This document shows, in pieces, positions 6,354-6,398 of a stretch of DNA of 6,883 bases (within the stretch, counting starts at the first letter, position 1; the number at the start of each line of letters is the position of its first letter). The notes below the pieces were generated by a model. The model did no database searches. It worked only from the letters and a program-made list of their open reading frames with translations, and was not told the DNA's origin. The position numbers and the translations under genes were made by a program. The stretch spans positions 1 to 6,883 of IMG/VR virus record IMGVR_UViG_2713896907_000005; one strand, given 5' to 3'. This DNA is from a virus (Duplodnaviria; Heunggongvirae; Uroviricota; Caudoviricetes).

Positions 6354-6398
6354 GCTCTTTAAACAACGTCGACTCTCGACTACGTGGCTGAAAAGCCA
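6354..6398 (+). promoter_or_regulatory. nutL (boxA plus boxB) N-utilisation site
   Basis: boxA gctcttta (6354-6361), a 23-nt spacer containing the small hairpin gtcga-ctc-tcgac, then boxB tggcTGAAAAgcca (6385-6398; 5-bp stem with GAAA loop). Flanks ACAACG and CTACG are shared with nutR. Confidence 0.55.

Follow-up and report, generated by a model that had tools for sequence, protein, structure and literature searches.

The DNA analysed here (the window, 6,883 nt, positions 1 to 6,883 of the IMG/VR Caudoviricetes record IMGVR_UViG_2713896907_000005) contains two candidate N-utilization (nut) sites, nutL and nutR, in which boxA and boxB are separated by a long spacer carrying a hairpin of its own and in which boxB is capped by a GAAA tetraloop. 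The locus raises the question of what the additional hairpin does and, more specifically, whether it is a new RNA element matched to a non-lambda N protein, as an initial annotation of the window had proposed. We consider it highly probable that the two sites are nutL and nutR of an H-19B-family N antitermination system, of the VT2-Sakai subtype, in a phage with a lambda-type cI, and that the hairpin acts as a 'reducer' of the spacer. This reading draws on direct observations of the position and anatomy of the sites, the covariation of both hairpins, N homology, identity to H-19B and VT2-Sakai sites, and the co-variation of the boxB loop with N's arginine-rich motif (ARM).

Both sites have boxA 5' of boxB, as nut sites should, and share the order boxA, ACAAC, spacer hairpin, UACG and boxB (Table 1), so that the two sites and the common architecture described initially are confirmed at the sequence level. 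The composite pattern GCTCTTT-N(2-4)-ACAACG-N(8-16)-CTACGTNGCTGAAAAGCNA has exactly two matches in the window and none in 200 dinucleotide-preserving shuffles, and an architecture common to both sites is not expected by chance. The flanks had been given as ACAACG and CTACG; both are indeed conserved, but in each the terminal base already belongs to the G-C pair that closes the hairpin, so the true single-stranded flanks are ACAAC and UACG. The linker between boxA and ACAAC is A in nutL and GUA in nutR, and the linear boxA-boxB spacer is 24 nt in each; with the stem closed, 8+4 nt remain in nutR and 7+4 nt in nutL. As in sites of H-19B type, the spacer dyad is able to form a stem-loop at both positions. 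The contrast drawn with lambda also holds, since lambda has an unstructured spacer of 8-9 nt and a GAAAA or GAAGA pentaloop (sequences in Prasch 2009). Lambda shares the boxA-spacer-boxB logic, the interaction of an ARM with a GNRA fold and the genomic positions, but its N is unrelated outside the ARM logic and, with a 24-nt hairpin spacer and a GAAA loop, the window sites are not lambda nut sites in the strict sense.

The window is a lambdoid early region in reversed orientation relative to the lambda map, and the open reading frame (ORF) map and promoter scan place both sites on early transcripts, as expected of lambdoid nut sites: nutL lies between PL and N, approximately 47 nt past PL, and nutR between cro and cII, 8 nt past the cro stop codon. 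The position of PL relative to nutL and N is that of the 'putative major leftward promoter' annotated in VT2-Sakai, and the early-region layout is common to the annotated records of 933W, mEp234, VT2-Sakai and P22. A cognate N with an N-terminal ARM is encoded 3' of nutL. The protein matches Pfam PF25694 N_peptide over its full length (E = 3.4e-32) as well as phrog_271, and is 40% identical (E = 1e-23) to the 127-aa N of 933W/H-19B type; a PDB sequence search with N gave no matches. Public records differ on its start, AP000363 giving 114 aa from an ATG at 6425 and AP000422 giving 90 aa from 6497. The shorter form is favoured by the Pfam profile, the alignment with H-19B-type N, AP000422 and the GGAGG Shine-Dalgarno sequence that precedes 6497, and the 114-aa ORF of AP000363 is probably over-extended. 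The segment comprising N and nutL is 95.6% identical to many Shiga toxin (Stx) phages.

Table 1. Positions of the nut-site elements, N and neighbouring early-region features in the window
Feature	Position	Strand	Basis
nutL, whole	6354-6398	+	
nutL boxA, GGCTCTTTA (RNA GGCUCUUUA)	6353-6361	+	fits rrn/lambda boxA consensus
nutL single-stranded 5' flank, ACAAC	6363-6367	+	
nutL spacer hairpin, GUCGA-CUC-UCGAC, 5 bp, closing G-C	6368-6380	+	minimum-free-energy fold, covariation
nutL 3' flank, UACG	6381-6384	+	
nutL boxB, stem UGGCU/AGCCA, GAAA (GNRA) tetraloop at 6390-6393	6385-6398	+	
nutR, whole	3439-3394	-	
nutR boxA, CGCTCTTT (RNA CGCUCUUU)	3432-3439	-	
nutR 5' flank, ACAAC	3424-3428	-	
nutR spacer hairpin, GGAC-AUUC-GUCC, 4 bp	3412-3423	-	folding, covariation
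nutR 3' flank, UACG	3408-3411	-	
nutR boxB, stem UCGCU/AGCGA, GAAA tetraloop at 3402-3399	3394-3407	-	
N antiterminator, 90 aa; ARM approximately residues 9-22, GTAASRRRARRANL; C-terminus CLPNVALYAAGYRKSKQLTAR	6497-6769	+	
PL-like early promoter, TTGACG-17-GATACT; transcribes nutL and N	6279-6307	+	consensus scan
PR-like early promoter, TTGACT-17-GATAAT	3672-3700	-	consensus scan
cro	3447-3647	-	ORF map
cII	3012-3308	-	ORF map
ninB, ren, P, O		-	ORF map
cI, lambda-type	3748-4461	+	ORF map
Two non-rex ORFs, then N-like ORF	ending 6769	+	ORF map

The architecture is already known from H-19B, for which it was described in 2000 (Neely & Friedman, Mol Microbiol 38:1074, cited by Muteeb 2012), and these exact sites are already annotated in VT2-Sakai, so the hairpin is not the novelty that it was first taken to be. 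H-19B and 933W, whose nut sites have been used by the Sen laboratory, show the same succession of boxA, ACAAY, spacer stem-loop, CUACG and a 5-bp boxB, with equal genomic positions and a homologous N. The antisense oligonucleotides RS662-RS665 give the sequence of H-19B nutR, which is identical to 933W nutR (Muteeb 2012 supplement); the 933W record annotates a 46-nt nutR and a 67-nt nutL, the mEp234 record annotates boxA and boxB, and nutR of both phages reads CGCUAUUUUCACAAU-GGACAUUCGUCC-UACG-UCGCUGACAAAGCGA. H-19B nutR agrees with the window nutR in its hairpin (GGAC-AUUC-GUCC), in CUACG and in the stem of boxB (UCGCU/AGCGA), and differs from it in the boxB loop (GACAA rather than GAAA), in boxA and in one base of the 5' flank. 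The stem of H-19B nutL is GAUUC/GAAUC and its boxA is poor, whereas boxA of the window is nearer the consensus. The proteins differ in length (127 aa in H-19B, 90 aa here) and in the ARM, RSRRRERLKAK in H-19B and ASRRRARRANL here, and in H-19B the segment 12-RSRRRER-18 together with residues R3 and S11 has been found experimentally to be required for nut binding. Given that the window combines GAAA with ASRRRARRA in place of the GACAA pentaloop and RSRRRER ARM, we place its element with the VT2-Sakai variant and not with H-19B itself. In the VT2-Sakai record (AP000422) the 'putative N-utilization leftward/rightward' features are sequence-identical to the window sites over the annotated spans, and the 90-aa N is annotated 'similar to 933W L0080 and H-19B N'. 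Phage epsilon34 likewise has the hairpin and a GAAA boxB, annotated 'putative NutR - boxB' and identical to that of the window nutR, but is without a recognisable boxA. The nut features of VT2-Sakai and epsilon34 are known as annotations alone.

Whether the hairpin is maintained in related phages was addressed by scanning IMG/VR for CTACG-NN-GCTGAAAAGC and its GACAA equivalent with the spacer left free, and by a third scan that required boxA and a GAAA boxB but not CTACG. Together these scans yielded 137 distinct sites, of which 106 were nut-like, the other 31 being chance matches in unrelated contigs, essentially without a hairpin. A G-C-closed hairpin lies directly 5' of UACG in all 106 nut-like sites, built from approximately 13 stem sequences (GGAC/GUCC, GUCGA/UCGAC, GGUGA/UCACC, GGCC/GGCC, GGCA/UGCC, GAUUCA/UGAAUC and GAAGAU/AUCUUC among others) in 17 stem/loop-type combinations; the loops of 3-7 nt vary in length and sequence and have no consensus. 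When the 3' arms were shuffled between sites, pairing survived on average in 30.6 sites and in no more than 46, compared with 106/106 in nature, and among unique inner-arm classes 9/9 pair, where 1.67 are expected. For 47 distinct sites aligned with MAFFT, pairing over the outer four pairs of the spacer stem is 99.5% (62.2% shuffled), with a covariation score of 0.957 (0.198 shuffled) that was reached in none of 500 shuffles, and slid registers of the stem give at most 57% pairing. All 47 sites have G-C as the closing pair, while 4-5 types of pair are found at each of the remaining three positions. Restricting the analysis to the 38 GAAA sites leaves both helices 100% paired, and the two outer boxB pairs, which the searches did not constrain, covary (UA/AU/CG and GC/CG/AU); boxB is thus a 5-bp stem with a GNRA-type purine-rich loop and compensatory change at its outer pairs, as expected of a nut site. 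Upstream of orthologous N genes the hairpin is kept with at least four stems (GUCGA/UCGAC, GGUGA/UCACC, GAUUCA/UGAAUC and GGUGAA/UUUACC). The proposal that the spacer hairpin is a selected RNA structure is therefore borne out by the covariation, and it is pairing, not sequence, that is maintained.

The same data bear on the possibility that the repeats are a DNA-level palindrome serving as a protein site, or a neutral relic of nutL/nutR duplication, with no function in RNA. Both window stems are palindromic in DNA, and that of nutL contains GTCGAC. We nevertheless give this explanation almost no credence, as compensatory changes have accumulated across many lineages while the length and sequence of the loop remain free, and as some spacer stems contain G-U pairs, which fit RNA pairing on the transcribed strand and would be A-C mismatches on the other. 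A duplication relic is also difficult to reconcile with stems that differ between nutL and nutR of one phage and yet both still pair.

The survey further shows which parts of the site are most constant. ACAAC or ACAAU is present in 96/106 nut-like sites, though absent from the search patterns, and the UACG flank has one natural variant, CCACG, in a single locus (L079). A recognisable boxA is missing in 39/106 nut-like sites (for example L002 1032-1098 and L321 290-340), and the ACAAY/UACG flanks are better conserved than boxA across the family. The boxA-less sites are typically nutL sites with a GAUUC stem, together with some nutR sites including that of epsilon34, and they fit the reported dispensability of boxA in H-19B. 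Along with H-19B footprints in which boxA is unprotected, they hint, if only indirectly, at a lowered demand for host factors (no need of NusB/S10 or boxA), although the window sites themselves have a good boxA.

If the hairpin were matched to N, the two would be expected to vary together. We compared approximately 35 distinct nutL sites having a downstream N gene. Every GAAA boxB is followed by an N whose ARM takes the form M(S/T)R(R/K)TxFxG(S/T)xAxRRR(A/E)RRAx(L/V)Q, and every GACAA boxB by an N with the ARM MTRRTQFKGNSRSRRRERLKAKA; there are no exceptions to this rule, in short GAAA with ...SRRR(A/E)RRA... and GACAA with ...RSRRRERLKAK..., and we found no description of such a GAAA/GACAA loop-ARM pairing in the searchable literature. 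The hairpin families GGAC/GUCC and GAUUCA/UGAAUC, in contrast, occur with both kinds of boxB. Furthermore, one locus (L257, approximately 6655-6690, plus strand) combines a short unstructured spacer with the GAAA boxB GCTCTTTAACAGAcAGCGCTGAAAAGCGC, and 3' of this nut site lies a 94-aa N-like ORF with a different ARM, NAAKRRRDSRQAL; L269 (minus strand) is its nutR-type equivalent. A plain GNRA tetraloop boxB is, then, not confined to the hairpin-spacer family, and on the evidence of these two loci and the hairpin-bearing GACAA sites we reject a coupling of the tetraloop to the long spacer. P22, whose gp24 has the N C-terminus ...ALYAAGHRKSKQITAR and whose nut sites combine a boxA of consensus sequence with a boxB of 5 bp and a GNRA-like loop, differs from the window in its unstructured spacer of approximately 11 nt, its GACAA pentaloop and its ARM. 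Taken together, the shared hairpin families, L257 and P22 indicate that it is the boxB loop that tracks N and not the hairpin, which contradicts the match between hairpin and N put forward in the initial annotation.

A hairpin that is bound by this non-lambda N, or by a partner that N requires, as a specific recognition element is for these reasons quite unlikely. The presence of the hairpin at both sites, the nearly invariant closing G-C pair and ACAAY/UACG flanks, and footprints on H-19B, in which spacer G residues are protected by N+NusA/G, would all suit such an element. Seventeen stem/loop-type combinations with loops of no fixed length or consensus would not, and nor would the occurrence of one set of hairpin families with two ARM/boxB classes, a GAAA boxB and N-like gene without the hairpin in L257, or the absence of the hairpin from P22, in which gp24 shares the C-terminus.

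The N proteins also vary at their other end. In three loci (L007, L049 and L093) the N ORF 3' of a GAAA nutL has a GAAA-type ARM and the C-terminus ...QKMRGKSIPLI in place of ...ALYAAGxRKSxxxTAR, the C-terminus of P22/H-19B-like N; we take the former to resemble the endings of N from lambda and phi21. N may accordingly undergo modular exchange, with its RNA-binding end and its polymerase-binding end passed on separately.

Our working hypothesis for the mechanism is that RNA polymerase starting at PL or PR would transcribe the nut site, that the ARM of the 90-aa N would bind the GAAA boxB hairpin, and that N would assemble with NusA, and possibly with NusB and S10 on a good boxA, on the elongating polymerase, the modified polymerase then reading through tR1 and downstream terminators. 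The spacer stem-loop is most likely, by analogy with H-19B, a sequence-independent reducer: its pairing would take 12-13 nt out of the 24-nt spacer and juxtapose ACAAC and UACG, so that boxA and boxB would in effect stand approximately 11-12 nt apart, about the length of the P22 spacer. The nut spacers of H-19B are said to carry dyad symmetries that other nut sites lack; changes to one arm reportedly inactivate the site and compensatory changes restore it, while deletion is said to have little effect, and the stem-loop was reportedly termed a 'reducer', with boxA, NusB and S10 not required. The juxtaposed flanks would be the likely region of contact with NusA. In the Escherichia coli rrn antiterminator, UGCUCUUUA is followed by ACAAU..., resembling boxA and ACAAY here, and the rrn spacer ACAAUUUA binds NusA-SKK; rrn differs in having no N, no requirement for boxB and another order of elements. 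Given the likeness of ACAAY to the first bases of the rrn spacer, and given that nut spacers in general are bound by NusA, the juxtaposed flanks are a plausible NusA platform.

A role for the hairpin in some other RNA process (loading of Rho at the nutR/tR1 rut site, cleavage by RNase III or other leader processing, or transcript stability, for example) has in its favour that the H-19B Rho footprint overlaps the nutR spacer. We regard it as very unlikely, however, since conservation of the hairpin is just as strong at nutL, where no Rho-dependent terminator overlaps, since RNase III needs stems longer than the 4-6 bp found here, and since the hairpin stands at a fixed distance, UACG, from boxB.

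Several points weigh against the reducer reading. Folding energies lend it little: isolated and in-context folds have z scores of -0.8 to -2.6, barely better than shuffles, and because they are so unremarkable the structural case rests on covariation and not on thermodynamics. As isolated RNAs of 45-46 nt, nutL has a minimum-free-energy fold of two hairpins (z = -2.6), but in the corresponding fold of the 46-nt nutR boxA or upstream sequence competes for the boxB 3' arm, and the two-hairpin structure of nutR is the centroid in a wider context. The predicted pairing probability of nutL boxB in context is only 0.07. Such competition for boxB would suit a hairpin that is a folding insulator, preventing boxA, upstream sequence or the rest of the spacer from mispairing with the boxB arms, as would the title of the H-19B study, which names alternative NUT RNA structures. 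Arm mutants, compensatory mutants and hairpin deletions were folded using ViennaRNA partition functions; arm mutation and hairpin deletion caused no consistent change in the predicted boxB pairing probability and did not lower it, although equilibrium folding of short RNAs is a weak test either way and favours neither the reducer nor the insulator. Insulation is unlikely as the explanation, but it is compatible with a reducer and may be part of its action. Regarding the survey, the search patterns themselves prescribed CTACG and the three inner pairs of boxB, and their conservation is not independent. The reducer role itself is carried over from what the H-19B genetic study is reported to have found; tolerance of deletion, if so, is hard to square with a hairpin kept in 106/106 sites, and the near-invariant flanks and closing G-C pair suggest something beyond passive shortening. 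Lastly, neither a naturally occurring boxB with a GAAA tetraloop nor the specificity of VT2-Sakai N had a prior account in the searchable literature, the search not extending to subscription papers such as those on the VT2-Sakai genome and that of Degnan et al. (2007) on wild lambda-immunity phages.

Rfam contained no family for nutL or nutR at E <= 1. The sole Rfam match in the window at that threshold, the snoRNA snR191 (2557-2639, plus strand), is spurious: it scores 19.6 bits against a gathering score of 46 and falls on TCCCTC-type iterons inside the O gene (ori).

Beyond the nut sites, the operator/promoter layout of the window is lambda-like, and its cI is presumably close to that of lambda. 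The combination of a lambda-like cI, a VT2-Sakai-type N/nut module and non-rex accessory genes suggests that the immunity region is a mosaic. At the location of lambda rexA/rexB, between cI and PL, are two overlapping ORFs (4548-5126 and 5123-6052, plus strand), followed by a terminator-like hairpin at 6066-6087. The first encodes a DUF6932 protein (PF22014, E = 2e-26) that also matches PDC-M63A, one of the candidate defence families of PADLOC (E = 2e-10); the second encodes a protein of 309 aa, function unassigned, in phrog_18731. From these matches the pair look like a candidate prophage-encoded defence cassette.

Some of the retrieved loci are not phage immunity regions but satellite islands resembling phage-inducible chromosomal islands (PICIs), in which a P4-type integrase is followed by tandem boxA-boxB units of differing specificity on one strand (L324 4660-5520, L056 1410-1830, L325, L326 6960-7815, L327 1760-2390 and L055 1420-1560). 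L324 has four kinds of unit: GAAA boxB plus hairpin, GACAA of P22-like type, GACAA plus a hairpin of H-19B type, and a boxB identical to that of lambda nutR, GCCCUGAAAAAGGGC. Next comes a strongly structured leader (z = -5.4) that includes a terminator-like hairpin of 15 bp, and beyond it lie a regulator gene of the AlpA family and PICI-like genes. Units are combined differently in L327 and L055, so that the arrays are modular. Of 5426 complete E. coli genomes, 32 contain the full array and many more have shorter versions, and among 328 sequences (327 loci and the window) mixed-loop clusters were found only in the six island loci. Lambda and phi80 induce alpA, and the study that reported this left the phage inducer unidentified (Fillol-Salom 2018, PMC6092414); a 2025 PICI paper names no alpA inducer. 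It is tempting to speculate that the array may be a multi-specificity sensor, through which the N of any lambdoid helper phage would switch on alpA. The arrays also lend independent support to the GAAA-plus-hairpin unit as a putative self-contained functional cassette, kept beside a GACAA unit as if the two were non-interchangeable.

When P22 boxB is in complex with its peptide, GACAA adopts a GNRA fold from which the C is extruded to contact the peptide, and by analogy the GAAA loop would be the P22/H-19B GACAA fold minus its looped-out C. A GAAA boxB with an SRRR(A/E)RRA ARM may on this basis form a separate, orthogonal class of N specificity with no extruded base, unlike those of lambda, P22/H-19B and phi21. 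The platform on which host factors load in this family may be the ACAAY/UACG flanks, held by the G-C-closed hairpin, and not boxA. The presence of a GAAA unit beside lambda-, P22- and H-19B-type units in the satellite arrays would mean that these specificities are truly distinct in nature. We offer the three propositions together as a real but tentative possibility.

A lambda-immunity phage with an N-nut module of VT2-Sakai/H-19B type is a further instance of lambdoid mosaicism, and little else changes on that account. The GAAA/ARM subtype appears to be without experimental characterisation in the searchable literature, which is a modest gap and not a surprise. What the survey adds is strong evidence, from covariation in nature, for the kind of spacer stem-loop that was studied in H-19B, and the rule relating ARM class to boxB loop could serve to predict the specificity of N in Stx phages, in which early gene expression, upstream of toxin release, is under the control of N. 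If the satellite arrays do sense N, they would provide a testable answer to how islands sense different lambdoid helpers, one that may outweigh the main finding.
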